From the NCBI GenBank assembly GCA_965223875.1, contig OZ245024.1, forward strand, positions 236,015 through 300,014: 64,000 nucleotides of DNA, in the 5' to 3' direction. Below are positions 4,478-50,174 of the stretch, piece after piece; position 1 is the stretch's first letter, and each line of letters opens with the position of its first letter. The notes below the pieces were generated by a model that did not search any database, had not been told where the DNA came from, and was given only the letters and a program-made list of their open reading frames with translations. This DNA comes from Candidatus Multivoradales bacterium (GTDB lineage: Bacteria; Acidobacteriota; Thermoanaerobaculia; Multivoradales; JAHEKO01). A program made the translations under genes and the position numbers.

Positions 4478-4481
<4 letters not shown>
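3354..4481 (-). CDS. aroB: 3-dehydroquinate synthase
   Basis: GGGSxxDxAGF, the NAD-binding Gly-rich region and the NLGHTLGHAIE metal-binding motif. The start at 4481 overlaps the aspS stop (ATGA). Confidence 0.85.
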
Positions 4482-6264
<1,783 letters not shown>

Positions 6265-6268
<4 letters not shown>

Positions 6269-11670: not shown

Positions 11671-13437
<1,767 letters not shown>

Positions 13438-13469
13438 GCCTTCTCGCGTACCTGTGGCCCTCATAGAGA

Positions 13470-13545
13470 CTGAAGCGGCCGGCCTTCGTGCCGGCCATTG
13501 TGCCGGTCACCCACCAACGGCCGGCAGGGACGCCGGCCGCTTCAG
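13470..13545. terminator. candidate bidirectional terminator (long hairpin)
   Basis: 14-nt inverted repeat CTGAAGCGGCCGGC / GCCGGCCGCTTCAG with an inner 8-nt stem. It lies between the convergent GspE-like and suhB-like genes. Confidence 0.4.
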
Positions 13546-13583
13546 TCAGGGAGGATGGGGAGACGGACGCCTGGCGCGGCTGC

Positions 13584-14408
13584 TCAGGGCTGCGGATCGA
13601 TCTCGTCGAGATGGGACTCGGACGTGTGCCGGGCGGCGATCTCGAGCAGGTCCCGGTGGACGGCTGGTGAGCCGGCGACGATGTTCCCGGTCTCGAGGTA
13701 GCGGTCCCCGCCGTCGAGGTCGGTGACCACGCCTCCGGCCTCCTCGATCAGCAGCACGCCGGCGGCCATGTCCCACGGACCGAGGCGGAACTCGAAGAAG
13801 CCGTCGTAGACGCCGGCGGCGGTGTTGGCCAGATCGAGTGCCGCCGCGCCCGGACGACGGATCGCCTTGGCGCGCAGGAAGATGGAGCGGAACAGCTCGA
13901 GGTAGGTGTCGATCGCGCGATGGGCCTTGAAGGGATATCCGGTGGCGAGAAACGCGCCGTCGACACCGCCGCGGCCGCTGACGCGCAATCTCCGGCCGTC
14001 GCACCAGGCCCCGCCGCCGGCAACGGCCGAGTACTCCCGCGAGCCGCTCGGGTCGGTGACGACGCACGCCACCGGGCGTCCGGCCCGCCAACACGCGACC
14101 GAGACGGCGAAGACCGGCAGACCGTGGAGGAAGTTGGTCGTGCCGTCGAGCGGGTCGACCATCCAGACGTGGTCGCCACCCCGTGTCGTCGCCAGACCGC
14201 TCTCCTCGGCCAGAATGTCGTGGCCCGGATGCTCCTCGCGGATGATGGCGAGAATGGCGTCTTCGCTCTCGCGGTCGGCTTGGCTGACGAAGTCGTTGGC
14301 CGCTTTGGCGCTCACCTCGAGAGACGAGCTGCCGAAGTAGCCGGAGACGACAGCGCTGCCGGCTCGGGCGGCGCGCCGGGCCGTCTCGAGAATCCTCTCC
14401 TGAGACAC
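13584..14408 (-). CDS. inositol monophosphatase family protein (SuhB-like)
   Basis: IMPase motifs: EESG, WMVDPLDGTTNF, the DxxxG region. Confidence 0.8.
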   Translation of the reverse strand: MSQERILETARRAARAGSAVVSGYFGSSSLEVSAKAANDFVSQADRESEDAILAIIREEHPGHDILAEESGLATTRGGDHVWMVDPLDGTTNFLHGLPVFAVSVACWRAGRPVACVVTDPSGSREYSAVAGGGAWCDGRRLRVSGRGGVDGAFLATGYPFKAHRAIDTYLELFRSIFLRAKAIRRPGAAALDLANTAAGVYDGFFEFRLGPWDMAAGVLLIEEAGGVVTDLDGGDRYLETGNIVAGSPAVHRDLLEIAARHTSESHLDEIDPQP

Positions 14409-21495: not shown

Positions 21496-21524
21496 TTGCC
21501 ACGTGTCTCCCCTTCCCCTACAAT
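21496..21524 (+). promoter_or_regulatory. candidate sigma70-type promoter for the tRNA-Thr gene
   Basis: TTGCCA, a 17-nt spacer, then TACAAT, about 38 nt upstream of the tRNA 5' end. Confidence 0.45.
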
Positions 21525-21562: not shown

Positions 21563-21638
21563 GCCGACGTAGCTCAGCTGGTAGAGCAGCTCACTCGTAA
21601 TGAGCAGGTCAGCGGTTCGAGTCCGCTCGTCGGCTCCA
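21563..21638 (+). tRNA. tRNA-Thr (anticodon CGT)
   Basis: Cloverleaf: acceptor stem GCCGACG/CGTCGGC, D arm GCTC-AGCTGGTA-GAGC, anticodon stem GCTCA/TGAGC with loop CTCGTAA, T arm AGCGG-TTCGAGT-CCGCT, encoded CCA. Confidence 0.85.
21589..21638 (+). repeat. attL (3' 50 nt of tRNA-Thr)
   Basis: Identical to 30186..30235. Confidence 0.8.
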
Positions 21639-21726
21639 GCTAAGCCTTTCAAAGGCAGCACTTTATGGCATTCCATGACGGAAGTGCCTCGGCTCAACTC
21701 GGCTCTCGGGGTCGCTCTGGGGGTCG

Positions 21727-21999
21727 GTGAAAGGAAGGGACGGAATGCACGCAACTTCATTCGCAGAGCTGCGTCAGAAGGACACAGGGAAGCTGATTCG
21801 CGAGTACGACGACATCGCGAAACACACGACCCTGGGCCTCAACTTCTACCGGGACGAACTCGCCAGACGAGATGCCGAACTGCAGGCGCACCGCATCGAG
21901 GATCTCACCACACGGCTTTGGTGGCTCACCGTTGTGATCGCCATTCTCACCGCAGTCAGTACCTTCGCGGTTGCCTACAGCGTTCTAGGTGGCGGCTAG
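21727..21999 (+). CDS. hypothetical small protein with a C-terminal TM helix (island cargo)
   Basis: 90-aa ORF with a charged N-terminal part and a TM segment LWWLTVVIAILTAVSTFAVAYSVL. Confidence 0.35.
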   Translation: MKGRDGMHATSFAELRQKDTGKLIREYDDIAKHTTLGLNFYRDELARRDAELQAHRIEDLTTRLWWLTVVIAILTAVSTFAVAYSVLGGG

Positions 22000-22137
22000 T
22001 TGGGCTGCTTGCGTCGCCACCGCTTGTAGCGCTCGGTCCCCTCTCGGAACTCCCGGTGTCCTTCAGCTGTGAATTCCCCGTGACGACCACCGAGCCACGA
22101 AGTCCCATCCTCTTCAAGCATTCCGATCGCCATGCAT

Positions 22138-22272
22138 CACCGTATGAACTCGAGCCGGTCCTCTTGCTGCTTCGGAGACAGGCCGTCGAGCTCACCGGGG
22201 ACGGAGTATCGCTCCCGCAGCTCAGCGAGGGAGAGCAACTCCCAGAACTCGGGCTGGTCGTCGCTGGCCACG
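22138..22272 (-). CDS. possible small ORF (44 aa)
   Basis: GTG-initiated ORF (VASDDQPEFWELLSLAELRERYSVPGELDGLSPKQQEDRLEFIR). Coding-like composition. Below the ORF-track size cutoff. Confidence 0.2.
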
Positions 22273-22504
22273 CTCTGAGCCTAGCAGGGCCCTAGAACAA
22301 GCAGAAGTAGCGGCGCCGGCACTTTTGCTCGACGCGCAGCATCCTTCTGGCAAAGAGTGCCGTTGCCGGTACTCTAAGCCCCCGGAGGCCGCAACCTGGT
22401 ATCGCCGCCGTGACCAGGTTGCTCGGAAGGAGCGGCGCCACCCGGCGCGACGGACGTGACCGGGTGACGCCTTGGCTGGGCGAGATGAGGAAACCCAGCC
22501 GTTC

Positions 22505-23211
22505 CTAGGCTGCTGCCGGTGGGGTGCCCTTTGCCCGCTCCGCGAGCGTCCGAGCCTGAGCCGCTGCGATCTCATCAGCCCGAGCGGCTTCAGGATCGCG
22601 AGACTTGGCGATCTCCGCCGCGACGATGGTCTCGCCGACCCGCAGATGCTTGACGGCATCCGCCAGAGCGTCCGCGAGCCTGGCCTGCCCGGGGTCGAGC
22701 TGTCGGGCCACGTGCCGGCGCATGTCGGAGGTCGGAAGCAGGTTGAAGGCGCTTGGGCCACACAGCGCCGAGACAAGCACCTGGGGGTCATCCGCGTGCA
22801 TCGCGTCGGTGATCGCCTTCGAGCGCTCTGGAGGCGATAGGCCGAGCAGCCAGTCGCGCACCTCGCGCTGTTGCCAGCTTGGGACACGTTCGACCACGGT
22901 CGAGCCAGAGAGCAGCTCCGCCTCTGCCAGGATCGCAGCTGCGCGCGCTCTGCTTCCGTAGTCGCGCTTGATTTTCTCGAGTTTCTCGCTGGCCTTGGCG
23001 GCTGCCCGGGTCTTGAGCCGTCGCTTCGCCATGTCTCCGATCTCGAGGTTGGAGTCGATCCGCGCGATCTCGTCCCGGTGAGACTTCATCACTCCGCGCA
23101 GCGACCCGTAGCCGCTCTGGGCGCTTTGGAAGCCCGGCGTCTTGTAATCGTCGCTGAACTTCGGGAAGTCCGGCAGTTCGCCGAGGGTCATGGTCCGCTT
23201 GTCCGTCATGC
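22505..23211 (-). CDS. hypothetical island protein
   Basis: ORF start moved to MTDKRTMTLGELPDF. Charged, helical. No family recognised. Confidence 0.45.
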
Positions 23212-23433
23212 CGCCTCCAGGTTCGCGAGCCGTTCGCGAAGCGCTGCGATGTACTGCCCGCCCCCCATCCAGGACTGAACTGCCTGGTGCGGGTATCGGA
23301 TGCCATCGGACGTCTCGATCCATCCGGGGCCCGGCGTCGAGTGGACGGTATGCCCTTCGCGCCAGGCTTCGAGTGTTTCGATGGGCAGCAGCGTTGTCGC
23401 CGCTACCTCGGCTTCTGTCAGTGTGTCTTTCAT
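23206..23433 (-). CDS. hypothetical small island protein
   Basis: 75 aa. 4-nt overlap with the downstream ORF. Confidence 0.35.
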   Translation of the reverse strand: MKDTLTEAEVAATTLLPIETLEAWREGHTVHSTPGPGWIETSDGIRYPHQAVQSWMGGGQYIAALRERLANLEAA

Positions 23434-23469
23434 GGTCTCGTTTTCCTTTCTGCCCGTGCGGGCGAGGTC

Positions 23470-24884
23470 CTATCGGAGGAAGTCGGCGCGAACAACCGAA
23501 ACTTGGTTGCGGGGCCGCCCTGCCACAGCCACCACCGCTCCCGCTGCAGCGTTCGCGAGGTCATCATGTGCACCGGGTCGATGGTCTACGCGGTCCCGGC
23601 CCGTGCTGGAGCGCCGGCGCTCGAGGCCTCGCAGTTCACGAAGCAGCGTCGGATTGTCGAGCAGGACGGCTCCGCCTGCGTTTACCAGGGGGAGCAATTC
23701 GAGGTAGAGCTCCGAGCGGGTGAGCTTCGTCGGCTCATAGGCGATGGCGTGACCGCGGAAGCCCTCCTCGACAAAGCCTGGCGCGTAGCGGTCCCCTTCA
23801 ACTCGCGAGACAAAGTACCGCCGCAGGACTTCTGAGGCCTCGCCGATGACTCCCGATGGATTGAAGGGTGGACGCCAGGCTCTGCAGGCGTCCAGCACTA
23901 CACGCTCCCCATCCTTGTGGGCGATGGCAACCGAGAAGGCATCCTTGCCAGAGCCCGACGCGGAGTCGACGAAGCCGCGGTACTTCACGCCGGCCTTTGG
24001 CTGGCGCTCCCGCACGCCCTCATCGACAACGTCAGCCAGGGCGTCGGGGTCGAAGAAGGTGGACACGCCAGCCCGGAACTCGCCGAGGACCTCAGAGCGG
24101 TAGGCCTCCGGGTCCTCCTCCTTCATTCGCTCGATGTAGTCAGCTGGCAAGGTCGGGTTCATTGCCGGGGCCATCGCCTGCCAGACGAGCACGGGTGAAT
24201 CCTCCTTGCCCCAATGGCGCCGGTGGAGCTCGTACAGGGCGCCGGCCTGGGCGTAGGGGCTCGAGAGAATCAGCAGCCGGCCCCGAGTGGTCGCGAGAGT
24301 GGGGCGCAGAGCTCGCAGCGTCTCGGCATCGGTCGGTCGGCCATCCGTCGACGTGAAGAAGGAAAGCTCATCGACGACCGCGAACGGAGCCCGGATGCCG
24401 CGGACAGCGGCCGGCCTGCAGGGGTAGACGGTCAGGGTCACACGGCCGGCCAGTTCGAGCTCCGTCGTCGTCTCTCGCGTCACCTCGCGGCCTAGCAGGT
24501 CGGAGCCGTGGACAGCCTCGCGGACGTACCCGAAGAGGGCTCGCTGGGCTCCGCGCAGATCCTGCGCAACCAGTGGCACGAACACTCCCCTCGAGCCTGC
24601 AAGAACCGCCTGGGCGGCCTCCTGAACGCCTGCCAGGGCTGCCACCTGCGTCTTGCCTGACTGGCGCCCGGTGACCACCGCGGCCTCCGCGTAGCCGCCC
24701 TCCCGGGGCGCTTCCCTGCCAGTGTGCGTCGTGAAGAGCTCTAGGTCGTCGTCTGACAGCGGCAGGCCGTAGAAGGCCCGCAGGAAGGCGAGCCATGGCC
24801 GCCAACTCTCGAGGTCCGCGAAGGCCGGCAGGCCCCCGAACAGGGCCCGGTCTTGCAGTGCGTCGATGATGTTCACTGTGTCGC
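23470..24884 (-). CDS. phage terminase large subunit-like ATPase/nuclease
   Basis: Walker A GRQSGKTQ (compare T4 gp17 SRQLGKT), Walker B FAVVDE, an ILSSPY coupling motif, and C-terminal nuclease-like acidic motifs (GFVDSASGSGKDAFS, HDDLANAA). GTG start at 24884 with AGGAGG upstream. Confidence 0.55.
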
Positions 24885-25352
24885 CTCCTGTGACTTCTGC
24901 TGGACGTGCTGGGCGAGGGTCACGCCCTTGGCTTTGCGCTCGAGGCCCAGTAGGCCGGCCAGGCGCACGACCCGGTCGAGCTGGGCGAGGTAGGCGTTGT
25001 GCAGGGCCTTCCTTCGTCCCTTGCCGGTCAGCACTCCCTCGGCCAAGAGCCGGCCCTCCATCCACTCGAGCATGGCGGCTGCCGAGACGTACCTCCTGAC
25101 AGTGTCCAGGGCGAGCGTTGAGAGGTCGGTCACGCCTCCGAGGTCAGCTGCGATGGCCTCTCGTCTCTCAGCGAGTGCCTCGGCGGCCTCGTCCTCGAGC
25201 TCCCGACGCAGGACCTTCGAGCGGCCACCGTGCACCAGGCTCGCGGTGTTGCCGCGGGCGAATCTGCCCTGTTCGTCGTGGTTTGCCCGGTCGTTGCTTC
25301 CAACCGACCCCGAACTGACCCCGGTCTCTATATCTCGTTTGTTCTCAGTCAC
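24873..25352 (-). CDS. possible terminase small subunit / DNA-binding protein
   Basis: 159-aa basic protein immediately upstream of, and overlapping, the terL-like gene. No motif-level support. Confidence 0.3.
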   Translation of the reverse strand: MTENKRDIETGVSSGSVGSNDRANHDEQGRFARGNTASLVHGGRSKVLRRELEDEAAEALAERREAIAADLGGVTDLSTLALDTVRRYVSAAAMLEWMEGRLLAEGVLTGKGRRKALHNAYLAQLDRVVRLAGLLGLERKAKGVTLAQHVQQKSQEATQ

Positions 25353-25471
25353 TTACAGCAAGCCTCACTGATAGGCAGTCAGCAGGTCTAGGAACTCCGA
25401 GCGGACGGTCTTCGGAGAGATTTCGGGCGGGTTCGCACCCCCCGCACCCCCTCAACTACAATTGCCGGGTA

Positions 25472-25681
25472 ATGAAGACGAATGGACCTACCCGATGGGA
25501 GAAGGTCGTATATGTCCTCGTACCGATCGGGTTGGCCATCCGGTCGTATGACCTCGTCACCGATGAAGACCCGGACAGGCGAACAGCCGCAATCATGGCC
25601 CTGGCTAGCCTTGCTCTGATCGGCATGATCATCATCGCGGGCGTCTGGCTGACTCGGCGGTCCCAACCAAGAGACGACTGA
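25472..25681 (+). CDS. small membrane protein (69 aa) in the low-GC island core
   Basis: Two predicted TM helices (VVYVLVPIGLAI, ALASLALIGMIIIAGVWL). Opposite strand to all neighbouring island genes. A possible -10 TACAAT lies just upstream. Confidence 0.3.
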   Translation: MKTNGPTRWEKVVYVLVPIGLAIRSYDLVTDEDPDRRTAAIMALASLALIGMIIIAGVWLTRRSQPRDD

Positions 25682-25702
25682 AGGACCGCCCGGATCTCCA
25701 TC

Positions 25703-25846
25703 GTGTCGCTCTCCGACATCATCACGGCTGTAGCGGGGATCGTCGCGCTGGGACTCGCGATCTTTCTCCATTGGGACAGCATCTTCCCGCTCGGAAGTAA
25801 CCAGCCCTACAACCCGTGGGACGAGGACGGGAACCTCAAGCAGTAG
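25703..25846 (+). CDS. small membrane peptide (47 aa)
   Basis: GTG start. TM helix ITAVAGIVALGLAIFL. In frame directly after the previous small ORF. Confidence 0.25.
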   Translation: MSLSDIITAVAGIVALGLAIFLHWDSIFPLGSNQPYNPWDEDGNLKQ

Positions 25847-25977
25847 CCCTGGCTCTTCCTTTTCTTCCCCTCCACCGAGACAGGCGGACAGAAGGCACCC
25901 CCCTACGGGGGGTGTGCCCCTACGTGTCCTGGGCCTGCAGGACACTTTGTCCAACACCACCCGGACACTCTGTCCGG

Positions 25978-27222
25978 TCATGGTTCATCCCTCTCTGAGA
26001 GGAGCGCCAGCCGGCCACCCTGAAGCAGCGTGAACTGCTTCTTGTACCTATTGGCTGTCCGTCTCACGGTGTCGGCCTTGGTCTCGAGCTCCGCGGCGAG
26101 AGACTCGACGGTGAGGGGGCCGCACTGAAGGGCGAGCGCCATCCGGTGGCGAATCGGAAGGTCCGCGGCCAGGTCCGGCACCCTGGCGAGGTCGATTCGC
26201 CGCACCTGGGTCCGGTCGGGGGCGAATCGGAGCTCAAAGCCGACCGAGGGTCGCCGGGCTCCGAGGTTCGCTTTTCGGTTGTGGAGGGCAACGCTGACGC
26301 GGTCCTCGCCTGGCAGGGTATCGGCGAGCTTCGCGTTCCAGGTGGCTCGAGCAAGGTTGGCCCAGAACGCCGATCCGAAGGGCCGTTGGTCGGCATGGTC
26401 CCCGGTCTTCGTCACGTGGGCGATGTGGAGCGAGCCGATTGGGCCGAGGCGACGCACGGCCTGGAAGTACCGGGATGCCACCTCGGCGGCCTCTGGTGGC
26501 CCGTCACAGGCGGGAGCGACTGAATCGCAGACGAAGTAGTCGAGTCGAGCCTCGCGAACGACGCGGCGTAGCCTCTCCACCTCGACGGCAAGCGGCTGGG
26601 CACACCGGACGTAGTAGACCTCGGGCATGTCCGCTCCGAAGAGGAGCTCGAGCCGCTCGCGGTGGTCCTCGCCTGTCAGTTCCCAGTCGAAGAAGCCGAC
26701 TCGCTGGCCGGCCTGGGCGAGCTTCCCGACGAAGTAGAGGGCGAGGTAGCTCTTCGTTGTGCCTCCATCGCCGAAGAGAACCAACGGATGGCTGGCCAGC
26801 AGCTCCAGTCCGTCGACCTCGAAGGCCGGGTCGGGTTCGGGTCGCTGCAGCCCGTGCAGTAGTACCGCCGGCTGTCCCTCCCTCTCGGCGGCGAGAACCC
26901 GCACGGCGAGCTCTTCGAGGAGCCCTACCCAATCGACCTCGTCACCGGTGCGGGCCCGGTCGGCCAGGTGGCGGGCATGCATGGACCGCGTCCGGGCCGA
27001 CGAGAGGTTGATGTCGGAGATTGAGAGCACATCGCCGTCGAAGGTTCGGGCGCCGGCGAGTTGGCACCGAACGAGAAGCTCGGCCTTCAGCTGGCCGCCC
27101 TGGCGGCGGAGATAGTCGACCTCGAGCGTCGCGAGGCCAGCTTTGGACTCGAGTAGGTAGCGACCCTCATCGAGGTCCTCGAAGGACCGCCAGTCGGTCG
27201 TAGGAGAGGCCTCAGGCATCAT
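25978..27222 (-). CDS. AAA_25 / RecA-like replicative ATPase (phage/plasmid primase-helicase-associated) with a C-terminal wHTH
   Basis: Walker A LFGDGGTTKS, Walker B LDYFVCDS and a RecA-like core. The C-terminal tail is DNA-binding-like. Confidence 0.55.
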   Translation of the reverse strand: MMPEASPTTDWRSFEDLDEGRYLLESKAGLATLEVDYLRRQGGQLKAELLVRCQLAGARTFDGDVLSISDINLSSARTRSMHARHLADRARTGDEVDWVGLLEELAVRVLAAEREGQPAVLLHGLQRPEPDPAFEVDGLELLASHPLVLFGDGGTTKSYLALYFVGKLAQAGQRVGFFDWELTGEDHRERLELLFGADMPEVYYVRCAQPLAVEVERLRRVVREARLDYFVCDSVAPACDGPPEAAEVASRYFQAVRRLGPIGSLHIAHVTKTGDHADQRPFGSAFWANLARATWNAKLADTLPGEDRVSVALHNRKANLGARRPSVGFELRFAPDRTQVRRIDLARVPDLAADLPIRHRMALALQCGPLTVESLAAELETKADTVRRTANRYKKQFTLLQGGRLALLSERDEP

Positions 27223-27469
27223 GTGATGGTCCGCCGTGGAGAAGGCACGAGAGGGCTCGGAGGCCGCTGCGCCGGGCAGCTAGTGCCTCGTCGAGGGCCT
27301 GTTGCGCTCTGAGCAGTGCGCTTGCCTGGTCCCGCATCGCCTCCCTCAGGTTGTCGAGGGCGTCACTAGCCGGTGTGATACCTTGGGTACTCGCGGTTGT
27401 GGTTGCCGCAACTCTTCCTGAGGCCCCGGATACCAGCCGGGGCCTTGGTATATCTGGGGCCCGGGGCAT
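27212..27469 (-). CDS. hypothetical island protein
   Basis: 85-aa ORF between the alpA-like gene and the replication ATPase. Confidence 0.3.
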   Translation of the reverse strand: MPRAPDIPRPRLVSGASGRVAATTTASTQGITPASDALDNLREAMRDQASALLRAQQALDEALAARRSGLRALSCLLHGGPSHDA

Positions 27470-27470
27470 C

Positions 27471-27704
27471 TCAGGCCGCCTCCGCCTGGTGTCGCTCGGC
27501 CCAGCCCTCGGGGTCCTCGAGCCATTCGAGGATCTCCGTGGCGAGGTAGAGCTGACGCGAACCGATGCGACGGGGCTCGGGGAAGCGACCGTCGCGCCGG
27601 AGGCGCCAGCGGGTCTTGCGGCTTAGGATGCCGGCCGCATCGAGGTCACGCTCTGAGTACGCGAGTCGAGGAGCTTCGGTGTGAATCTCTTGTTTCTGAA
27701 GCAT
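27471..27704 (-). CDS. AlpA/Xis-like phage transcriptional regulator / excisionase (MerR-type HTH)
   Basis: YSERDLDAAGILSRKTRWRLRRDGRFPEPRRIGSRQLYLATEILEWL matches the AlpA (DUF/Phage_AlpA) HTH pattern. Confidence 0.55.
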   Translation of the reverse strand: MLQKQEIHTEAPRLAYSERDLDAAGILSRKTRWRLRRDGRFPEPRRIGSRQLYLATEILEWLEDPEGWAERHQAEAA

Positions 27705-27758
27705 GCCGCATCCTTGCCTGGGGCGTGGCATGCCCGCCCGTCACTAAATCGAGTCAGA

Positions 27759-28199
27759 TTAGTGACGGATGATGGTGTCGTGACCGATGACCGTGACGCC
27801 GATTCGTTTCAGTAGATCCTCGAGCTCTTTCCATGCGGCCCACTCGGCGTCTGTGGCGACGATCGGTCGATCCGCGGGGACCCGTATTGTCAGGTTTCGG
27901 GAGACGTCGCGCCGAGCTCTTGAGATCGTGGTCTCCGAGAGACCGAGTGCCTCGCCGGCGATATCGTCGTCGTCGTACTGGTTCACCGATCCGAAGAGCT
28001 GGCGGTGTTTGTTGACGAAGGCGGAGCACAGGGCGCGGTCGAGGTTCCGATCCACGCGCTCGAATAGCGGGAGAGCTCGCCGGCCAGCCTTGCCGGGGAT
28101 CGCGAGCGCCTTGAGTTCCGCGACCAGGTTCTCGTCGGCACCATCTTCACGGAGCTTGGCGGCCAGCTCAAGCAGGGCTTCCCGCTCGTCGGATCTCAC
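27759..28199 (-). CDS. hypothetical island protein (possible HTH)
   Basis: 146-aa ORF. GEALGLSETTISRARRDV looks HTH-like. Confidence 0.35.
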   Translation of the reverse strand: MRSDEREALLELAAKLREDGADENLVAELKALAIPGKAGRRALPLFERVDRNLDRALCSAFVNKHRQLFGSVNQYDDDDIAGEALGLSETTISRARRDVSRNLTIRVPADRPIVATDAEWAAWKELEDLLKRIGVTVIGHDTIIRH

Positions 28200-28693
28200 G
28201 TCTCCCCCAGTCCGAAGAGCCTGTGGCGCTCCGCATAGTCAAAGGCGACCTCGAGTAGTTCGGTCGCCCCATCAAACAGCAAGGCCGAACTCTCCAAGTA
28301 GCCGGCGACGGTGAATGCCTTGTCTACCGTTTGCTCTGCTCGCGTCGACCGCCGGTGGTGCCGTACTTGGTTCTCGCGTCGCCAGCCCGTGCGTTCAGCT
28401 TTCCGCTGGCGTCGCAACTCTCGCTGAAGCTCTAGCGGGTCGACGTCGAAGAGGTTCGCGAGATGCTTCTGCGTCGCGCAGTGGTACTTGAGAGAGAACT
28501 TGTTCGCCGCGCTGGGCTGTCTCACGTCGTCGCAGCAGGGGCGTCGCTCGCTCTCGCTCGGCCACCAGGCGCCGTCTTCATCGACGTCACCATCAGGTGG
28601 TTTCGTGGCGTCTGACCTTCCGAAACATCGTTCCCCGTAGGCGGTGGCAGCCATCCTCAGACGTTCCTCGGTACACTGCTCTTCGTTGCGCAT
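28196..28693 (-). CDS. hypothetical island protein
   Basis: 165-aa ORF directly downstream of int. Confidence 0.35.
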   Translation of the reverse strand: MRNEEQCTEERLRMAATAYGERCFGRSDATKPPDGDVDEDGAWWPSESERRPCCDDVRQPSAANKFSLKYHCATQKHLANLFDVDPLELQRELRRQRKAERTGWRRENQVRHHRRSTRAEQTVDKAFTVAGYLESSALLFDGATELLEVAFDYAERHRLFGLGET

Positions 28694-28774
28694 CGGGTTA
28701 GCTCCTTTGCGTGACTTGGCCCGTTCGGAGTTGTCGCTCCGGGCGGGCCTCCTAAGGTTATTCGGTCTGGCTCC

Positions 28775-30013
28775 TCATGCTCGCCTCCGCATCCTGACGA
28801 CCTTGCCCTTGGTCGCTGGGTCGAGCTTCTCAATGTGGTCACCCCACGCCTGCAGTGCCTCGGCCTTTTCTCTCGAGTAGTCGTATAGCGCGTAGTGCCG
28901 GGCCGTCACGGTGGCTGGTGCATGGTTCGCGACAGCGGCGATGACCTGGCCTGGGAATCCGAGGCGCTCGAGGCCCGTCAGGCATGTTGACTTCAAGTCG
29001 TAGACGTTCCAGGGCTCCGCCAGCTTCGCCTTTGCCTTCAAGCGCCGCGCGTGCTTTCCGTAGTTCGTGAAGGGCTTGGCGTCCCGAATCGATGGGAACA
29101 CCCACCCGGAGCCGGGGTCGTACTCCCTGGAGCGCCCCAGGACGGCCCGCGCCTGCCTAGAGAGAGGAACGGAGTTTGGACGGCCATTCTTCGAACGCTC
29201 CGCGGGTAGGTCCCAGGTTTCACCGTCGACCTCCGACCAGCGCATCCCGAAGACCTCCTTCGGCCGTTGCCCTGTCAAGAGGAGGAGCTCGAAGCCGAGG
29301 CCGGCAAGACCCTCATCGCGGAACAGCGGTAGCAGGACCTTGAGCTCCGCGTCGTCGAGGACGCGCACCCTCGGCTGCTCCTTCTGTCGCCGGATGCCCT
29401 GGGCGGGATTGACCGCGACGGCATCACGCTCAATGCCGAAGTTGTAGATCTTCGAGACAAGAGCTTGCACTCGGTTGGCGGCGGCGACCTTTCCCTCGTC
29501 GACATACTCGTCGAGGAGCTCGACGACGTCGCGCTTGCGCACGTCCTGAGCCTTCAACCGGCCCCAACGAGGGATGAGTACCCTTTCGACGCGATTCTCG
29601 TCCTCTCGAGCGCCCTTGGGCTCCTTGCGGGGCTTTGCCCATCGCTCGACGTACTCGCGAGCGAGCTCGGCGAAGGTCGGCGCCTGACGCCGCTCTCGTC
29701 GCTCCGCTGCCGGGTCGGCGCCGATGCGTGCTGCCTGCAGCACTTCCTTGGCCTTGGCTCGAGCCTTGGTGAGGGTCAGTCGCTCGACCTTGGCGGCTGG
29801 CCCCTTCTTCGGCGACGACTCGTCAACACCGAGCGTGACACGCGGCCGGGCGCCGTCTTGCCACCATGAGACGCTGTAGCTCTTCGTCCCTGAGCTCGAG
29901 ACCCTGAGAACGAGGCCCGGGAGTACTGTGTCCTGGTAGTCGACCCTCCCCTTCTCTGGCGGGGCCGGGGGAAGGCCCTTCACTGCCTGCGCGGTGAGCT
30001 TGGTTTTTGGCAT
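28775..30013 (-). CDS. int: tyrosine-type site-specific integrase (P4-like, with an N-terminal arm-binding DUF4102-type domain)
   Basis: N-terminal GLPPAP..VLPGLVLRVSSSGTKSYSVSW arm-binding module and a C-terminal catalytic domain (RPKEVFGMRWSEVD .. HAPATVTARHYALYD with the catalytic Tyr). RBS GAGGAGG. Adjacent to attR. Confidence 0.9.
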   Translation of the reverse strand: MPKTKLTAQAVKGLPPAPPEKGRVDYQDTVLPGLVLRVSSSGTKSYSVSWWQDGARPRVTLGVDESSPKKGPAAKVERLTLTKARAKAKEVLQAARIGADPAAERRERRQAPTFAELAREYVERWAKPRKEPKGAREDENRVERVLIPRWGRLKAQDVRKRDVVELLDEYVDEGKVAAANRVQALVSKIYNFGIERDAVAVNPAQGIRRQKEQPRVRVLDDAELKVLLPLFRDEGLAGLGFELLLLTGQRPKEVFGMRWSEVDGETWDLPAERSKNGRPNSVPLSRQARAVLGRSREYDPGSGWVFPSIRDAKPFTNYGKHARRLKAKAKLAEPWNVYDLKSTCLTGLERLGFPGQVIAAVANHAPATVTARHYALYDYSREKAEALQAWGDHIEKLDPATKGKVVRMRRRA

Positions 30014-30041
30014 GCTGACACCTCCTCAGCAGGTCGACCCC

Positions 30042-30184
30042 GGGGGTCGGGGGTCGGTCGGGGGTCGGTGAAGCGCTGAGACTTGCTGACACGGCATGCC
30101 CCCACCTTACACCGAGAAGCCCCATACTGTATAGGTATTCAGGGTGTCAGTTTGTAGCAGAGAGTAGCGCGGGGGTCGGTCCAA
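30042..30184. promoter_or_regulatory. cluster of GGGGTCGG direct repeats between the int start and attR (candidate integrase arm/core binding sites)
   Basis: gggggtcgggggtcggtcgggggtcggtg at 30042-30070 and cgggggtcggtcc at 30171-30184, which abuts the attR core. Confidence 0.35.
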
Positions 30185-30185
30185 T

Positions 30186-30235
30186 GCTCACTCGTAATGA
30201 GCAGGTCAGCGGTTCGAGTCCGCTCGTCGGCTCCA
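30186..30235 (+). repeat. attR (duplicated tRNA-Thr 3' end)
   Basis: gctcactcgtaatgagcaggtcagcggttcgagtccgctcgtcggctcca, identical to the 3' end of the tRNA gene. Confidence 0.8.
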
Positions 30236-30350: not shown

Positions 30351-32725
30351 TCACTGCCCTGTCCGTTTCAACAGCTCGCCGAATTCGGGGTCGTCCCGCA
30401 GGGCATCGAAGCGGGGTCCCGTCTTGAGGTAGAGCGTGTGGAAGCTGCCGTTGGCGACCGCCTCTTCCAGCAGACCCAGAGCCTGCTTGTTGTTCCCGAG
30501 GCCGAGGTGGACGATCGCGAGGCCGAAGGGCGGCGGTCTCTCCGCCCGCTCGAGGTCTTCGAGGATCCGGACCGCGCCATCCCGATCGCCGGCCTTGGCG
30601 AGCGCGTGGCCCAGTGCCGAGAGGTAGAGGGGCGCGTTGCCTGAGAGCTCCCTGGCGGCCTCGAACCTCGAGATGGCCTCTCGGTAGTCTCCCTTCTGCT
30701 CATGGGCGAGACCGACGTAGTAGTGCAGCGACGGGTCGCTCTGATCGAGGCTCAGCGCCTCCTCGAAGTTCTCGAGCGCCCGGTCGAAGTCCCGGTTCAG
30801 GTGGTACACCTGACCCAGTGCGTTGTGAACCGCCGTGGAGAGTGGGTCGAGCTCGACGGCGCGCAGCGTGGGTTCCAGAGCGTCGTCGAACCTGTCGGAC
30901 TCGGCGTAGAGCCAGGAGAGGCGAAGCAGGGTGTCGACACTGTTGCCGTCGAGATTCCGTGCCCGGAGGTACTCGGTCTCGGCCGCTTCGGGCTCGAAGT
31001 CGAGGTAGTAGTGGACGCTACCCAGCGCGACATGCGCTTCGGCGAGGCGCTCATCGAGCTGTACAGCCTTCTTCGCCGCAACTCTGGCCCGAGCTTCGAT
31101 GTCACCGGGCTGCAGGTACTCGAAAAAGGCGCTGTCCACGAGGCACATGGCGAGGTGCGCGTAGGGTGCCGCGAAGTCAGGGGAGCGCTCGATGGCGAGC
31201 TGGAGCAACTCGGCACCCTGCCGCATCTCCTGTGGACTCCAGTGCTCGCAGAAATACCGGCCCTTGAGGTAGAGCTCGTACGCCATCGGGTCGACCGGCC
31301 CCGGCGACTCAGGACCGGAGCTCTCCACCGGCATGACGGTCGCCTGAACCTGGTCGCTGATCTGCCTCGTCACATCGTTGTACAGGGCCAGGATGTCGAC
31401 CAGCTCGCGATCGAAGTTGTCGGCCCAGATATGGCGATCGGTGCGGGCGTCGATCAGCGTCGTCGTCACCCGGACGACAGCGCCCGCTTTCAGCACGGAA
31501 CCCTCCACCGCCGCGTCGACGTTCAGTTCCTCGGCGATCTGCCGCAGCGGTTTGTCGGAGTCGGCGTAGTGCATCGCAGTCCTCTGGGAGATGATGTCCA
31601 GGGAACTGATCTTGGAAAGCTGCGTGATCAAGGCTCGGTGCATGCCCTCGACGAAGTAGTCCTCGCCGGGGTCGTTCATCAGGTTCTCGAAGGGGAGTAC
31701 CACGACAGAGCGGATCGGCTTCGCTGCGACAGGCTCCGCTGCCCGCTGACCGACCTGGCTCGATCGGTCCAGCCACAATGCCAGGGCAATGGCGCCCAGC
31801 GCCGTCACCAGCAGGGCCGCACCGATTCCTGGCCGCGAGGCCGTGGATGTTCCCGTGCCCGAGTCACCCGCGGGAAGAGAGTCCTGGAGCCCGATCCGCG
31901 CGTCGCCCACGTTCTGCAATCGAACACCGACATCCTTGCGGAGCGTGCGCTCGAGGAGCCGACGAACGGTCGGTGGAAGTGCGGCGGGAAGCCGCGACCA
32001 ATCGGGCTCTTCGTTCAAGACGGCCGAGAAGGTGTCCGGGACCGTTTGACCTTCGAACGCCCGCTTGCCGGTAAGGGCTTCGTAGAGGCAGCACCCGAAC
32101 GCCCAGATATCGGCGCGCCGATCGACGGGCTGTCCCCGAGTCTGCTCGGGGCTCATGTAACCGGCGGTTCCCAGGATCGTGCCGGCACGCGTGCCTTTCG
32201 TGAGCGTCGGCGACTGTGACGACTCCTCGGATGCGCAGGTTTCGGGTGCCAGCGCTTTCGCGAGCCCGAAGTCGAGGATCTTGACCTGGCCTTCGGGATT
32301 GACCTTGATGTTCGCCGGCTTCAGGTCGCGATGGATGATGCCCTTCTTGTGCGCCGCCTCGAGACCTTCGGCGATCTGCGTGAACAGCGATCGCGCTTCG
32401 TCCCACGGGATCGGGCCCCGTGCTATGCGATCGGCCAGGGTCTCCCCATCCACGAGCTCCATGACCAGGAACGGCTGCTGCTCTTCGTGCTCGAGCCCGT
32501 AGAGAGTGGCGACGTTCGGGTGGTTGAGTGCGGCCAGGAGCCTGGCCTCCCGTTCGAAGCGGTCGAGAAGATCCTGGACCTTGCCGACCTCGTCGGCAGG
32601 ACCTTGATGGCCACTTGGCGATCGAGCTTGGTGTCGCGCGCGACGTAGACCTCCCCCATGCCGCCGGCTCCGGCGGGCGCGAGGATCCGGTAGCTACCGA
32701 TCTGGCTTCCGCTTTCAAGGCTCAT
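30351..32725 (-). pseudogene. Ser/Thr protein kinase with TM, TolB_N-like periplasmic module and TPR repeats; disrupted by a 1-nt frameshift near 32595
   Basis: The first 45 aa ([44 protein letters not shown]) are in one frame. The kinase continuation ([53 protein letters not shown]...HRDLKPANI...DFG) is in the -1 frame. One nucleotide appears to be missing at CTGCC^GACGAG. Confidence 0.7.
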
Positions 32726-33026
32726 GTTTGCTACGGCCCTTTCTAGCAGATGCCGACGCTACGCGGATATCGGCCACGTCGCGTGCCGAGGATGGGACCT
32801 TCGCCCGCGAGTCTGTCGGTGCGCTCCGTGTCGAGCTCCTCGACGGCAATCTCATGGTCCCAGGATGACGTCGACATGGTCTCCAGGATCGAACCAGTCG
32901 ATGCGATCGCCAGCTCGCTCTCGACAGAGTCGCCCGTTCGCGAGAACATCGGCGGTACGAGGAAGCAGCCGTGAGTTCCGATCCGGGCGCTGTCCCGCGG
33001 TCGGCCCGGGTCCTGAGGAGGTATCG

Positions 33027-41401: not shown

Positions 41402-42583
41402 TCAGGTGCTCTTCCACCACCAGCGGGGCGCGTTTCTCGAGCCGCCATCGAGAAGTTCGTCGATCCTGAGCATCAGTCGTCGCAGGAGACTCCCCATCAG
41501 ACGGAAGCGGATCCTCTCGATCCATCGCGGATGGTCTCGGTTGTAGGGACAGACACGAATGCAGATCGAGCAGTCGGTCATCTGGGTGACCCAGAAGCCG
41601 AAGCACTTCTCCGCGTCCGTCGTCCACTTCTCCACTCCGGTGACGTTGGAGGTGTTGTGGATCTCCTCGCTGGGCGCCGTTCCGGCGATGGCGCTCGGCG
41701 GGCACTCGTCGGTACAGCGCCGGCAGATCTCGCAGAACTCCCTGACTCCGAAGCGGATCGGCTGGTCGTGCGCCAGCGGGAGGTCGGTGAAGATCTTGCC
41801 GATGCGCAGCCGCGGGCCCATCCCGGGTGCGATGAGCAGGCCGTGGCGGCCGTACTCGCCGAGCCCGGCCTTGATGGCGTAGGGAATGCTCGGGCCGGTG
41901 TCGTTCATGCTGGCGTAGGCGCGGTAGCCGAGGTTGCGAATGTACTGGGCGAGCGCCAGGAGCGTCACCACGTCCATCGAGTACCCGACGCCGGTCGCTG
42001 TACCGCTCAGGGCCGACGGGACCGTCTTGAGCAGGTCGTGGTCCATCTCGTGACAGACGACGATGACCGAGGTCAGATCATCGCCGAGGTCCATCGGGAT
42101 CTCGGCGTCCCTGGAGCGGCTGTAGCTGTGCGAGTAGACCCAGCGCTCGTCGTAGTAGGTGATCCCCACCAGGTCGGCTCCGAAGAGGCGGGCGGCCTTC
42201 TTGATCTCGTGCGACATCACCTTCGGGTCCTCGACCACGCAGCGCTCCCGGGCGCCGACGCGATGGGCCGTGAGGTAGTCGAGGAAGCCCTCGCGTCGAT
42301 CGTCTTCCTCGAGACGTTCGGCGAAGAAGTCGGCGACGTGCCAGCCGGCATTGCGCAGGGCGAAGTCCTTCTGCGCGTAGCCGTCGACCAGGCGCCACTC
42401 GCGTAGCGGTCGCCTGTAGGACTCGTAGAAACGCTCGGCCGCCGGAGTGTGGATCTCCTCGTCCCAGAACGAGCGGCAGAAGATGTCCCTCTTCTGGCTG
42501 AATCGGGAGTAGCGCTCGCTCACCCGGAAACCGGCGTCGGCATCCGAACCGCAACCACCTTCGCAGGTCGTACAGCGGCTCAT
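41402..42583 (-). CDS. reductive dehalogenase / QueG-superfamily (cobalamin-type) double 4Fe-4S protein, cytoplasmic form
   Basis: Two C-terminal ferredoxin motifs: CEICRRCTDECP (Cx2Cx2Cx3CP) and CSICIRVCP (Cx2Cx3CP). There is no Tat signal. The start ATG overlaps the stop of the upstream DltD-like gene (ATGA). Confidence 0.45.
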   Translation of the reverse strand: MSRCTTCEGGCGSDADAGFRVSERYSRFSQKRDIFCRSFWDEEIHTPAAERFYESYRRPLREWRLVDGYAQKDFALRNAGWHVADFFAERLEEDDRREGFLDYLTAHRVGARERCVVEDPKVMSHEIKKAARLFGADLVGITYYDERWVYSHSYSRSRDAEIPMDLGDDLTSVIVVCHEMDHDLLKTVPSALSGTATGVGYSMDVVTLLALAQYIRNLGYRAYASMNDTGPSIPYAIKAGLGEYGRHGLLIAPGMGPRLRIGKIFTDLPLAHDQPIRFGVREFCEICRRCTDECPPSAIAGTAPSEEIHNTSNVTGVEKWTTDAEKCFGFWVTQMTDCSICIRVCPYNRDHPRWIERIRFRLMGSLLRRLMLRIDELLDGGSRNAPRWWWKST

Positions 42584-43758
42584 GGCGTGCCCTCAGTCCC
42601 TACGCTCCGGGTCGGGTCGGCCTCCGCGTCGGAGATCGGGAGTGAGGGAGCCATTCGTTGGGCCAGCTCCGCCATCACCCCGTCGGTGGCGTGCTCGTTG
42701 AGGTGGTGGTCGTAGCGGCCGGCCTGCCAGAGGGGCTCGGTGATCGGAATGAGCTCGAGGTCGAGGCTCTCCGTCAGCCGGTCGATGTTGTTCCAGAACT
42801 GCTCGGAGCTGGCCTGGTAGAGCCGCTCGCCGACCCGGTACACACCGTCCATCTCGGAGGTCTTGTCGCCCTTGTCGACGGCCATCAGGGTGAAGCCAGC
42901 ACCCGCCTCGCCGGCCGCGGATCGCATGGCCAGCAGCAGCTCGCGAGTGAGGTCGATGCCGTAGAGGGTCCGCGGACTGGCCGGCGCCAGCCTGAGAGCG
43001 CGATCGTTCTTCTCGATGGCCAGCCCCTCCGGCAACAGGAGGCCCTGGGCGGCGAGCTCCTCCCACTCGTTGCGTACGGTCTCTCCGGCTTCGAGATCCC
43101 GCTCGGAGAGCGGTTCGTAGGCGGCCGGCAGATAACGCCGTGCCCAGTCGGCGTCGGGTGAGGTCCCGAGCGCCAATTCGAGAAGCGCCCGCAGACGCAG
43201 GCGGGGACTGACGACCTCCCTCATCGTGTGGTTGGGGCCGGCGAGACGCCCGGCGTCGAGCCAGAAGGTCGGCTTCGGCCGGCCATCGATGGGCATGAAG
43301 GTCGGCCAGGTGTTGTCCTTGACGTCGTTGTTGAGGGTCAGCCAGGCGACGACGTGGTCGGCCCGGAAGCGCCGCAGATAGCGCCGCAGCGCGAGGTACT
43401 CCTGGTCCTGCCCGTAGCCGCTCGCGCCGACGCTGAAGACCCGCACCGATCTGCCGATGGCCAGCGACAGATGGTGCTCCAACCGTCGTTCCGGCATCCA
43501 GTGATAGGAGCACGCCTTGGCTTCGACCTGGGAGTCGCCCACCAGCAGCACCACGAAGTCGTCGTCGGTGAACTCGATCGGCTGGCCCCGGTAGCCCATC
43601 TCGTTCTGCTCCACCGCGAGATGAGTATTGAGCCACCCGGTGCGGACCGGCGGGGGCCGGTCGAGCAGTCGCAGACAGACCTCGGCGATGGCGAGGGCGA
43701 AGACGACGCTCGCGAGCGCCAGTGCCGATGTAAGGAATGTCCGTTTCAGGCGGTTCAC
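42580..43758 (-). CDS. membrane-anchored SGNH/GDSL-like hydrolase (DltD-like)
   Basis: N-terminal TM anchor (LTSALALASVVFALAIAEV) followed by block I LLVGDSQVE. The start is uncertain: the GTG at 43758 was chosen to avoid a 91-nt overlap with the carrier protein gene. Confidence 0.55.
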   Translation of the reverse strand: MNRLKRTFLTSALALASVVFALAIAEVCLRLLDRPPPVRTGWLNTHLAVEQNEMGYRGQPIEFTDDDFVVLLVGDSQVEAKACSYHWMPERRLEHHLSLAIGRSVRVFSVGASGYGQDQEYLALRRYLRRFRADHVVAWLTLNNDVKDNTWPTFMPIDGRPKPTFWLDAGRLAGPNHTMREVVSPRLRLRALLELALGTSPDADWARRYLPAAYEPLSERDLEAGETVRNEWEELAAQGLLLPEGLAIEKNDRALRLAPASPRTLYGIDLTRELLLAMRSAAGEAGAGFTLMAVDKGDKTSEMDGVYRVGERLYQASSEQFWNNIDRLTESLDLELIPITEPLWQAGRYDHHLNEHATDGVMAELAQRMAPSLPISDAEADPTRSVGTEGTP

Positions 43759-43777
43759 GGTAGGGGGAGCGAGCGTT

Positions 43778-44025
43778 TCAGCACCCGCCGGCCGTGGAGG
43801 ATTTCGCGTCGACGAAGCGTAGGATCCGCGCGACGCTGTCGAGATTCTCCAGCTGGACGTCCATCGCACCGACCTTGATCCCCTCGGTCGACTCGATGAA
43901 GTTGATGAGCTCGACCATGCTGAACGAGTCCAGAAGCCCGTCGGAGAAGAGAGGAGCGTCGTCGTCGAGCCCGTCGGCCTCGATGCCGAAGCGCTCGGAA
44001 AGATACCGACGGAGCTCGTCTCGCG
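43778..44025 (-). CDS. acyl/D-alanyl carrier protein (DltC-like)
   Basis: 82 aa. Phosphopantetheine-attachment motif LFSDGLLDSFSMVELINFIE. Confidence 0.7.
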
Positions 44026-44031
44026 TCAGGG

Positions 44032-46796: not shown

Positions 46797-46833
46797 TGGC
46801 TCAGCGGGTCCATCTTCGCAGGAGGATCCGGTC

Positions 46834-46965
46834 TCAGAATCCCTGGTAGCGGAAGATCCGTATCCCGGACTCGAGGGTGAGCAGGTTCACCAGTGCCCAG
46901 GTGAGCAGGGTGCCGAGCACGAGGCCCTGAAGAAGGGCGCCGAGAAGGTGCCAGGAACGCTTCAT
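46834..46965 (-). CDS. DltX-like micropeptide (43 aa), not in the ORF track
   Basis: MKRSWHLLGALLQGLVLGTLLTWALVNLLTLESGIRIFRYQGF has a single TM helix and a C-terminal F-x-Y-x-x-F motif, as in Gram-positive DltX. Its ATG overlaps the stop of the upstream gene (ATGA). It lies 37 nt upstream of the MBOAT gene. Confidence 0.55.
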   Translation of the reverse strand: MKRSWHLLGALLQGLVLGTLLTWALVNLLTLESGIRIFRYQGF

Positions 46966-48056: not shown

Positions 48057-48104
48057 CGCCGGATTCTACCGGCGCCGCGGGTAGAATCGCAGCGACCTCC
48101 CGAT

Positions 48105-50156: not shown

Positions 50157-50174
50157 TTGCAGTACGCTACGTCG

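Follow-up and report, generated by a model that had tools for sequence, protein, structure and literature searches.

A tRNA-Thr-integrated element encoding a putative terminase pair and no recognised virion proteins belongs to a satellite-like family in environmental bacteria

We analysed a 64,000-nt stretch of contig OZ245024.1 from a Candidatus Multivoradales bacterium (Acidobacteriota), hereafter the window, which contains a small integrative element inserted at a tRNA-Thr gene. This gene (anticodon CGT; 21563-21638, plus strand), the integration target, is the single tRNA of the window according to ARAGORN, with Rfam in agreement (71 bits). Its 3´-terminal 50 nt (21589-21638, plus strand; tRNA position 27 to the 3´ end) constitute the left attachment core, attL, and are duplicated at 30186-30235 (plus strand) with 100% identity and zero mismatches, this displaced copy of the tRNA 3´ end being attR. 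No complete tRNA was called by ARAGORN at 30186-30235, and the next-longest repeat in the 12 kb examined was 31 nt long with 74% identity. The element measures 8,547 bp between the cores and 8,647 bp from the start of the first core to the end of the second. Its GC content is 65.2%, compared with 68.4% and 67.8% for the flanks, and the GC content at third codon positions (GC3) of its genes is 0.70-0.80, compared with mostly 0.82-0.90 for the surrounding host genes. Since the fragment at attR is free of tRNA constraint yet remains identical at 50 of 50 positions, the comparison of the two cores suggests that the insertion is recent. A first-pass annotation had described this locus as an 8.65-kb unit flanked by an exact 50-nt duplication of the tRNA 3´ end, carrying a P4-type integrase, an AlpA-like regulator, an AAA_25-type ATPase, a terL-like gene with a putative small subunit and a lower-GC core with two tiny membrane peptides, and lacking structural virion genes; each of these features was recovered in our analysis, the AlpA-like, AAA_25 and small-subunit assignments weakly.

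On the minus strand the genes form two tightly packed blocks, int-orf165-orf146-alpA-orf85-rep and terS-terL-orf75-orf234. The map is based on codon-position GC and on exact protein matches to public gene calls, with which the starts of the int, helix-turn-helix (HTH), AAA_25, terS-like and terL genes agree. One end of the element is occupied by the gene for a 412-aa tyrosine integrase (28775-30013, minus strand), which starts 172 nt from attR and whose product has a P4/CP4-57-type domain architecture (Pfam Arm-DNA-bind_3, E = 7.5e-11; Phage_int_M, 5e-12; Phage_integrase, 2.2e-13; PHROG_1 integrase, 1.1e-56; NCBIfam PRK09692, 6e-19). A decamer, GGGGGTCGGT, is present in exactly four copies in the window, against 0.28 expected by chance, a count reached in none of 100 shuffles, and all four exact copies are found at the element ends in a single orientation. 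The first is at 21719-21728 (plus strand), 81 nt inside attL. Between the int start and attR, three tandem copies of GGGGGTCGG(T/G) span 30042-30069 (plus strand), exact at 30049 and 30060 and with one mismatch at 30042, and the fourth exact copy of GGGGGTCGGT (30171-30180, plus strand) ends 5 nt short of the attR core. In the circular excised form, such candidate arm-type sites would flank the core on both sides, the arrangement expected of arm-type sites given that the integrase has an arm-binding domain. The predicted attP junction reads ...GGGGGTCGGTCCAAT + 50-nt core + GCTAAGCCTTTCAAAGG..., and the predicted attB is the tRNA-Thr gene followed directly by CAGGCTTTCTCGC....

The second block begins with a putative terminase pair. 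The product of terL (23470-24876, minus strand; GTG start overlapping the terS stop) is a 468-aa protein with an ATPase and an RNase-H-like nuclease domain. Pfam gave no match, and PHROG terminase-large-subunit families were matched with E values of 1.8e-24 (PHROG_2) and 5e-12 (PHROG_7579), so that the lack of any terminase HMM match, named in the first-pass annotation as an outcome that would refute it, did not arise. A profile of 19 homologues, searched against the PDB, matched the ATPase domain of T4/RB49 gp17 at positions 67-174 (4.5e-5) and the nuclease of a thermophilic-phage TerL (5tge/5m1f) at positions 342-456 (~4e-4). All 19 homologues share an unchanged Walker A (G70-K75), Walker B (D169-E170) and set of acidic residues (D304, D362 and D438-D439), and the ratio of nonsynonymous to synonymous substitution rates (dN/dS) is 0.24. 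The large terminase is full-length and retains its ATPase and nuclease motifs. The gene immediately upstream (24873-25352, minus strand; stop overlapping the terL GTG start) encodes a 159-aa protein that we call terS-like from its position and its membership in a conserved family. It had no match in Pfam, PHROGs or NCBIfam, a search of the PDB with the family profile returned only noise, and tblastn against phages found nothing. Members of the family (130-250 aa) are encoded immediately upstream of TerL in 25 loci according to our own open reading frame (ORF) calls and clustering, and share the motifs GRFxPGN..HG, ADLGG, KGRxR and LGLERRAK; a hidden Markov model (HMM) of the family, including the window protein, picked out some 70 ORFs, in about 70 loci, whose end coincides with the start of TerL. 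The conserved C-terminal LGLERRAK is a candidate TerL-binding tail, which would explain how terL cassettes could swap among divergent terS genes.

Two further genes complete this block. The stop of orf75 (23206-23433, minus strand) overlaps the start of orf234 (ATGA), and orf234 (22505-23209, minus strand) encodes an all-alpha protein that is a conserved partner of the terminase module (dN/dS 0.15). The orf75 product is 76% identical to the ORF at the same position in a sister element, L044 (dN/dS 0.32), and weakly similar to an integrase-adjacent ORF in another relative, L036 (8.7e-4); judged by eye alone, it resembles a fold of the excisionase/HTH_17 type. For orf234, an exhaustive HMMER search of 1.84 billion representatives yielded nine relatives, one of them 93% identical and the other eight 26-31% identical (231-291 aa), two of the remote homologues being located on contigs too short for gene context; a word-indexed profile search gave no new members. 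The family HMM matched the gene following TerL in L008, L002, L048 and a Methylobacterium plasmid (L127), as well as the gene after the unrelated TerL of L044. AlphaFold2, given a 12-sequence alignment, predicted a structure consisting entirely of helices, a long helical hairpin plus shorter ones (predicted local distance difference test score, pLDDT, 85.6; predicted template-modelling score, pTM, 0.71), and the prediction from the single sequence was poor (pLDDT 45). In Foldseek searches of the PDB and BFVD the best hit reached only E 0.16 and a TM score of 0.36, and a search of phages of the same kind as that used for portals gave no match. An all-helical protein would not have the HK97 capsid fold, and we rejected both capsid and portal as identities for orf234, which is predicted to be all-helical, is small and is not homologous to the portals encoded after related TerLs. 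The linkage of orf234 to two unrelated terminases, in the slot occupied by the portal gene in phages, points to a role in packaging or hijacking.

Two genes of the first block were assigned putative functions from sub-threshold or family-level matches. The 86-aa AlpA/Xis-like HTH protein (27471-27731, minus strand), separated from int by orf165 and orf146, scored just below the Pfam cut-offs (HTH_17, 3.4e-4; Phage_AlpA, 4.2e-4, 20.6 bits vs 21) and matched two PHROGs annotated as excisionase and transcriptional regulator (PHROG_2790, 1.1e-6; PHROG_66, 1.4e-5). It is a candidate excision directionality factor and/or activator. The putative replication ATPase (414 aa; 25978-27222, minus strand) has a RecA/DnaB-like P-loop domain (AAA_25, 6.4e-4, 19.8 bits, under the Pfam cut-off of 27) and a C-terminal HTH-like region; no primase domain was detected in it with Pfam, PHROGs or NCBIfam, and comparison with phages gave no match. 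A strong homologue is encoded by a related element, L012 (E 6e-132; dN/dS 0.36), and in relatives the replication-gene position upstream of terS is mostly occupied by primase/helicase families.

Searches with Pfam, PHROGs and NCBIfam matched no capsid, portal, protease or tail family in the element, and neither Pfam nor PHROGs revealed fragments or pseudogenes of structural genes. The largest unassigned ORF is orf234, and no other unassigned ORF exceeds 165 aa, so that none has the size or the fold expected of a capsid or portal protein. No ORF belonged to a Pfam family of relaxases, FtsK/TraB-type translocases or type IV secretion components, and we rejected a conjugative or mobilizable element, including an actinomycete integrative and conjugative element (AICE), as there were no transfer genes among the Pfam matches. 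A gene transfer agent (GTA), which would be a chromosomal head-tail cluster devoid of integrase and replication genes, was rejected because the element has an integrase, a replication gene and attachment sites but lacks genes for heads or tails. Defence families were not matched by PADLOC, and the tRNA was the only non-coding RNA reported by Rfam.

We then examined the distribution of the large terminase. More than 1,187 TerL relatives were present in databases, the best 120 being 57-87% identical. The clade defined by 49-87% identity comprised 36 loci, all from metagenome-assembled genomes (MAGs) that are GTDB species representatives, one genome per species, and assigned to Acidobacteriota (several classes), Nitrospira, Binatia, Myxococcota, Planctomycetota, Rokubacteria, Spirochaetales, Armatimonadia, Lysobacterales, Alpha- and Deltaproteobacteria and others, the nearest TerL being in a MAG of Thermoanaerobaculia ('Ca. 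Multivoradales'). A metagenome scan added 80 TerL loci, for a total of more than 100 in about ten phyla, and since many of the 36 MAG loci are on contigs of 100 kb to 1.1 Mb, their host assignment is no binning artefact. According to our own ORF calls and clustering, 24 loci have a tyrosine integrase at a distance of 3-9 kb from TerL. Direct repeats of 42-54 nt enclose five relatives, with spans of 10.4-15.3 kb; in four of the five, one of the repeat copies coincides with a tRNA gene (Leu, Phe, Pro, Leu), and the fifth has a tRNA-Cys at one end. The window element, 8.5 kb long, is smaller than every other delimited member. It is probably an intact representative of a family of small, satellite-like integrative elements that is widespread in bacteria of soil and groundwater and for which we found no published description.

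The closest relative differed from module to module. TerL was most similar to that of L001/L005 (87%; the terS and integrase of L001 were only 31% and 30% identical), the replication gene to that of L012, terS to that of L010 (41%) and int to that of L009, its best match. The orf75-orf234 pair was closest to L044, with 88% nucleotide identity over 22428-23464 only, the homology between the two elements stopping at 22428. L044, an 8,168-bp ENA contig, has the order int, xis, small ORF, AAA_25, terS, terL, orf75, orf233, and its terS and terL are of a different lineage that shows no BLAST similarity to ours (Terminase_6N type, with a terS matching PHROG_309), so that L044 reads, at 3632-6454, as a clean cassette swap at the terL/orf75 boundary. 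Modules are exchanged between elements. Together with dN/dS values of 0.15-0.36 for the four genes tested, the separate best relative of each module argues that these are working genes in a recombining pool and not debris.

As positive controls we used two phage contigs with distant TerL relatives, L137 (37% identical to the window TerL) and L130, both of which have a portal gene directly downstream of TerL (tblastn 2e-76 and 3e-80 to annotated portals). No homologue of these portals was found in any satellite-like locus, the window element included, and with the portal following TerL in the distant phage relatives and absent from the satellite-like loci, the TerL clade resembles a branch of a phage TerL lineage from which the neighbouring portal gene has been lost. 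In a search of 50,697 deposited phage genomes, the top match to TerL was 23% identical, and within IMG/VR the clade was confined to L041 and L138, both small contigs with the layout of the family. The first-pass annotation had left open whether the locus was a phage satellite or a heavily deleted prophage. An integrase, a tRNA attachment site and terminase genes are typical of prophage ends, and a temperate phage stripped of its head, tail and lysis genes could leave such a set. We nevertheless regard this origin as very improbable. The phage comparisons above speak against it, as do the lack of structural fragments or pseudogenes, the tight coupled operons under purifying selection (dN/dS <0.4) and flanks of ±10 kb (contigs up to 1.1 Mb) with no tail or portal gene among the 25 commonest PHROG/Pfam families listed per search. 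The satellite half of the earlier alternative is favoured because a compact, att-bounded layout of 8-15 kb with genes under purifying selection recurs across phyla, and because the TerL clade resides in small elements, while its distant phage relatives keep a portal by TerL.

We compared the element with known satellites. The P4-like resemblances are a P4-type integrase at a tRNA, a small size and a proposed dependence on a helper for all virion proteins; the alpha primase-helicase, psu, delta, epsilon and sid of P4 were unmatched in the element by Pfam and PHROGs. P4 uses the terminase and cos sites of its helper. Its Sid protein is an external scaffold, all-alpha and about 240 aa, to which orf234 is comparable in size and secondary-structure class. 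The core set of phage-inducible chromosomal islands (PICIs) consists of int, a regulator of the alpA, merR or stl type, a primase-replicase and terS, with no other phage genes (PMC10085698). Gram-negative PICIs of the EcCICFT073 type have a median length of 9.5 kb (de Sousa et al., 2023; PMC10085698), compared with 8.5 kb here, and resemble our element in a one-strand gene order that runs from int through a regulator and a replication gene (here an AlpA-like and an AAA_25 candidate) to terS (here a terS-like gene) towards the other end, with accessory genes in between, as well as in an integrase at one end and the lack of tail genes (PMC10085698). Unlike PICIs, which borrow the TerL of the helper, the element encodes terL; no capsid-morphogenesis (cpm/ccm) gene or Rpp was recognised in it, its putative replication protein is an AAA_25-like ATPase in which no primase domain was detected, its family has hosts in Acidobacteriota-like and other environmental phyla, and its proteins resemble known PICI proteins only in generic domains.

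The combination of a terS-like gene and terL with int, a putative regulator and a putative replication protein instead recalls capsid-forming PICIs (cfPICIs; Alqurainy et al., 2023, as summarised in PMC10085698 and PMC10690885), and some relatives of the window element add a prohead protease and an HK97 capsid gene as cfPICIs do. In the window element, however, capsid, protease, portal, head-tail adaptor, connector and HNH endonuclease are missing, leaving at most 5 of the 11 cfPICI core components, so that the element would depend on a helper for heads and tails alike. It therefore fits neither the canonical PICI nor the cfPICI type. PICMIs and VEIMEs resemble our element in being minimal, integrative and free of capsid genes; these satellites are thought to fill the capsids of a helper, and some have terS; the sections of the two reports drawn on here describe at most a small terminase and motor-like ATPases, mention no large terminase, and place these satellites in marine Vibrionaceae and bacterioplankton, where the helper enzyme packages them as concatemers (PMC10803314, PMC9618062). 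In the papers considered here, P4-like satellites, PICIs, PICMIs and VEIMEs borrow the helper large terminase, and cfPICIs and MulchRoom/MiniFlayer bring a whole head; MulchRoom/MiniFlayer and EPIPs carry capsid genes. We found no published satellite with both terminase subunits and no head genes, in an incomplete coverage of the literature, and no report of satellites from Acidobacteriota or Nitrospira in the satellite literature searched.

We consider it probable that the element is a PICI-like satellite that packages itself, by means of its own terminase, into procapsids made by a helper phage. Upon helper infection or induction, the integrase and the AlpA/Xis-like protein would excise the element as a circle, which the AAA_25 ATPase would replicate. 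Its own TerS would recognise a site on the element, and its own TerL would cut the DNA and pump it into helper procapsids, docking on the helper portal, after which helper tails would complete the particle. The orf75-orf234 pair, which takes the place of the phage portal and travels with the terminase module, probably assists the hijack; it might be an adaptor, a scaffold that directs size or a factor that inhibits helper packaging. The DNA could be packaged in small capsids or as multimers in full-size heads.

Several observations weigh against this interpretation. Excision, replication and packaging of the element are all predicted from sequence, and the terS, AlpA and replication-protein calls come from weak matches or from gene position. 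A pattern for the empty site (tRNA 5´ half plus right flank) was absent from metagenome contigs, the attP-junction pattern of the excised form was absent from IMG/VR, and terminal overlaps indicative of circular or concatemeric forms were found in 0 of ~40 whole contigs with this TerL. No helper phage was identified, and none is near in the chromosomal flanks within the 64-kb window. The satellite papers considered here offered no precedent for a TerL acting on a foreign portal in a satellite that encodes no portal itself. Finally, no portal or tail module was recognised in any locus of the family among the 25 commonest families listed per search, a result that also depends on our own simple ORF caller, so that a rare portal may escape it. 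L001/L005, the element with the closest TerL (87%), contains inside its att repeats a prohead protease, a likely capsid protein of 372 aa and a 634-aa tail-fibre-like protein with a Peptidase_S74 chaperone domain; given this gene content, the window element could be a reduced derivative.

The genes around TerL in the relatives bear on the same point. In the 4.5 kb downstream of TerL, the loci encode 124 proteins, of which three were HK97-type capsid proteins, two to four were prohead proteases and most were orphans, with no portal family among the matches listed; the single tail-related match was the tail-spike/fibre-like protein of L001/L005 (PHROG tail spike, Pfam Peptidase_S74). In three loci an additional protease cluster is located upstream of TerL. 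In all, about 10 of the 36 relatives encode a head maturation protease, an HK97 capsid protein or both beside TerL, recognised with the libraries that gave no such match in the window element, and the remainder have no head gene. HK97 capsid and/or head maturation protease genes were located at 11512-12792 in L019, 11530-12987 in L020, 5557-6699 in L041 and 8489-9664 in L029, in each case with no recognisable portal; a capsid gene lacking a portal partner is an odd gene set in itself. In L001/L005 an IS21-family insertion (IstA/IstB) directly follows terL at 11747-14082. These relatives raise the alternative that the window element is a reduced or stranded descendant of a capsid-encoding satellite whose ancestor had a protease and a capsid gene, as in L005, L019, L020 and L041, and which is now immobile or reliant on a second co-resident element plus a phage. 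Its small size and the stretch without a clear gene at 22000-22504 would fit such a loss. We judge this unlikely, in that capsid-less layouts recur independently in L002, L008, L010, L012, L044 and the Methylobacterium plasmid, conservation of the terL-orf75-orf234 junction (ATGA and GTGA overlaps, low dN/dS) is unlike a deletion scar, and the identity of the two att cores suggests a recent, hence active, integration.

Searching plasmids with tblastn, we also found the terminase module in cultured Alphaproteobacteria. The 58-kb plasmid of Methylobacterium sp. 4-46/CB376 (NC_010373.1/NZ_CP121649.1; L127 is 42343-50588 of the latter) carries, in order, a P4-family primase, a small recombinase, a terS-like gene (E 6e-14), TerL (40%), a 114-aa ORF and an orf234-like gene (E 3e-12), and plasmids of Komagataeibacter nataicola (L128, NZ_CP134887.1, 656-4659, among them) carry a recombinase, a 118-aa ORF, TerL (34%), DUF2213 and a 226-aa ORF; apart from the DUF2213 protein, the module proteins of both are annotated as hypothetical protein. 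The presence of the module on these non-mobilizable plasmids, beside small serine recombinases and ParA, raises the alternative of an integrative plasmid-like element whose terminase would serve concatemer processing, packaging into host-encoded particles (GTA-like or vesicle-borne) or interference with phage packaging. That no helper is known would agree with this, and the far better conservation of TerL than of any neighbour hints at a constraint other than a fast-evolving phage partner. We give this alternative a small chance. To our knowledge every known TerL acts on a portal-bearing procapsid, and satellite P4 is also known to reside as a plasmid; no defence family was matched in our element, and the capsid genes beside the same TerL in some relatives tie the clade to capsid packaging.

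If the element is indeed a self-packaging satellite, it may represent more than a single case. As a tentative extension, to which we would give somewhat less than an even chance, the family could constitute a large unrecognised class of satellites in soil and groundwater phyla that take over helper procapsids with a motor only, defined by a satellite-specific conserved TerL, a cognate LGLERRAK-tailed TerS and an all-alpha partner in the portal slot, and ranging over Acidobacteriota, Nitrospirota, Binatota, Myxococcota, Methylomirabilota, plasmids of Alphaproteobacteria and others. Such satellites would need nothing from the packaging enzyme of the helper, a strategy between PICIs (terS only) and cfPICIs (whole head); they would show that a foreign TerL can match a helper portal, add a new point to the spectrum of helper dependence and extend satellites to phyla such as Acidobacteriota and Nitrospira. 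The profiles of TerL, TerS and orf234 provide a simple marker set for a census, and the plasmids of the cultured Methylobacterium sp. 4-46/CB376 and Komagataeibacter nataicola make the idea testable at the bench.

The remaining genes of the element are small, and the terS-like, orf165, orf146, orf85, orf75, orf234 and orf90 products and two membrane peptides had no match in Pfam, PHROGs, NCBIfam or PADLOC. Both orf165 (28196-28693, minus strand), whose stop overlaps the orf146 start (GTGA), and orf146 (27759-28199, minus strand) fit the coding phase and are present in public gene calls. The uncertain orf85 (27212-27469, minus strand), between the AlpA-like and replication genes, has an ambiguous codon phase, and small ORFs at the same position were found in L044 (74 aa) and L001 (75 aa). 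Between the replication and terS genes is the lower-GC core (25353-25977, 625 bp; 60.8% GC vs 65.2% for the whole element), in which two ORFs on the plus strand encode membrane peptides of 69 aa (25472-25681; hydrophobic segment at residues ~37-63) and 47 aa (25703-25846). Both ORFs have a GC3-high, GC2-low frame, the signature of plus-strand coding, and both peptides contain hydrophobic segments of at least 17 residues. This opposite-strand cassette is absent from L044, where the replication gene abuts terS, indicating that it is accessory cargo. An imperfect hairpin with 26-nt arms (25906-25963) lies between the convergent ends of the replication gene and the peptide cassette. Next to attL, orf90 (21727-21999, plus strand; supported by codon phase) encodes a protein with a C-terminal transmembrane segment (hydrophobic residues 61-89) and is likewise listed as cargo, and the adjoining stretch 22000-22504 has no confident gene, only short ORFs of conflicting phase. 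Palindromic stretches were noted at 22300-22329, in this gene-poor region near attL, and at 27941-27984, inside orf146.

Other cargo was apparent in the relatives. Downstream of TerL we noted a PvuII-type restriction enzyme with its methylase, a 5-hmdU DNA kinase domain, Endonuclease I, trypsin-like proteases, and PilZ and adenylate/guanylate cyclase domains, and genes upstream included those for Mom-like and ParB-like nuclease proteins.

The element is flanked on the left by pyrC, pyrB, pyrR and smc and on the right by genes for a TPR protein kinase and a TetR regulator. The Ser/Thr kinase gene adjoining attR is frameshifted at 32380-32800 (minus strand), with the N-lobe (GAGGMGEV...VAIKVLP) and the remainder in different frames, the remainder running into a 703-aa ORF at 30351-32462, right of the element. 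The split kinase is either a pseudogene or an indel error of the assembly; the assembly may therefore hold indel errors, which possibly also blur the stretch at 22000-22504. On the other side, a sigma-70-like promoter (TTGCCA, 17-nt spacer, TACAAT) is present at 21496-21524, about 40 nt upstream of tRNA-Thr, and is the sole such site across the 9 kb scanned.

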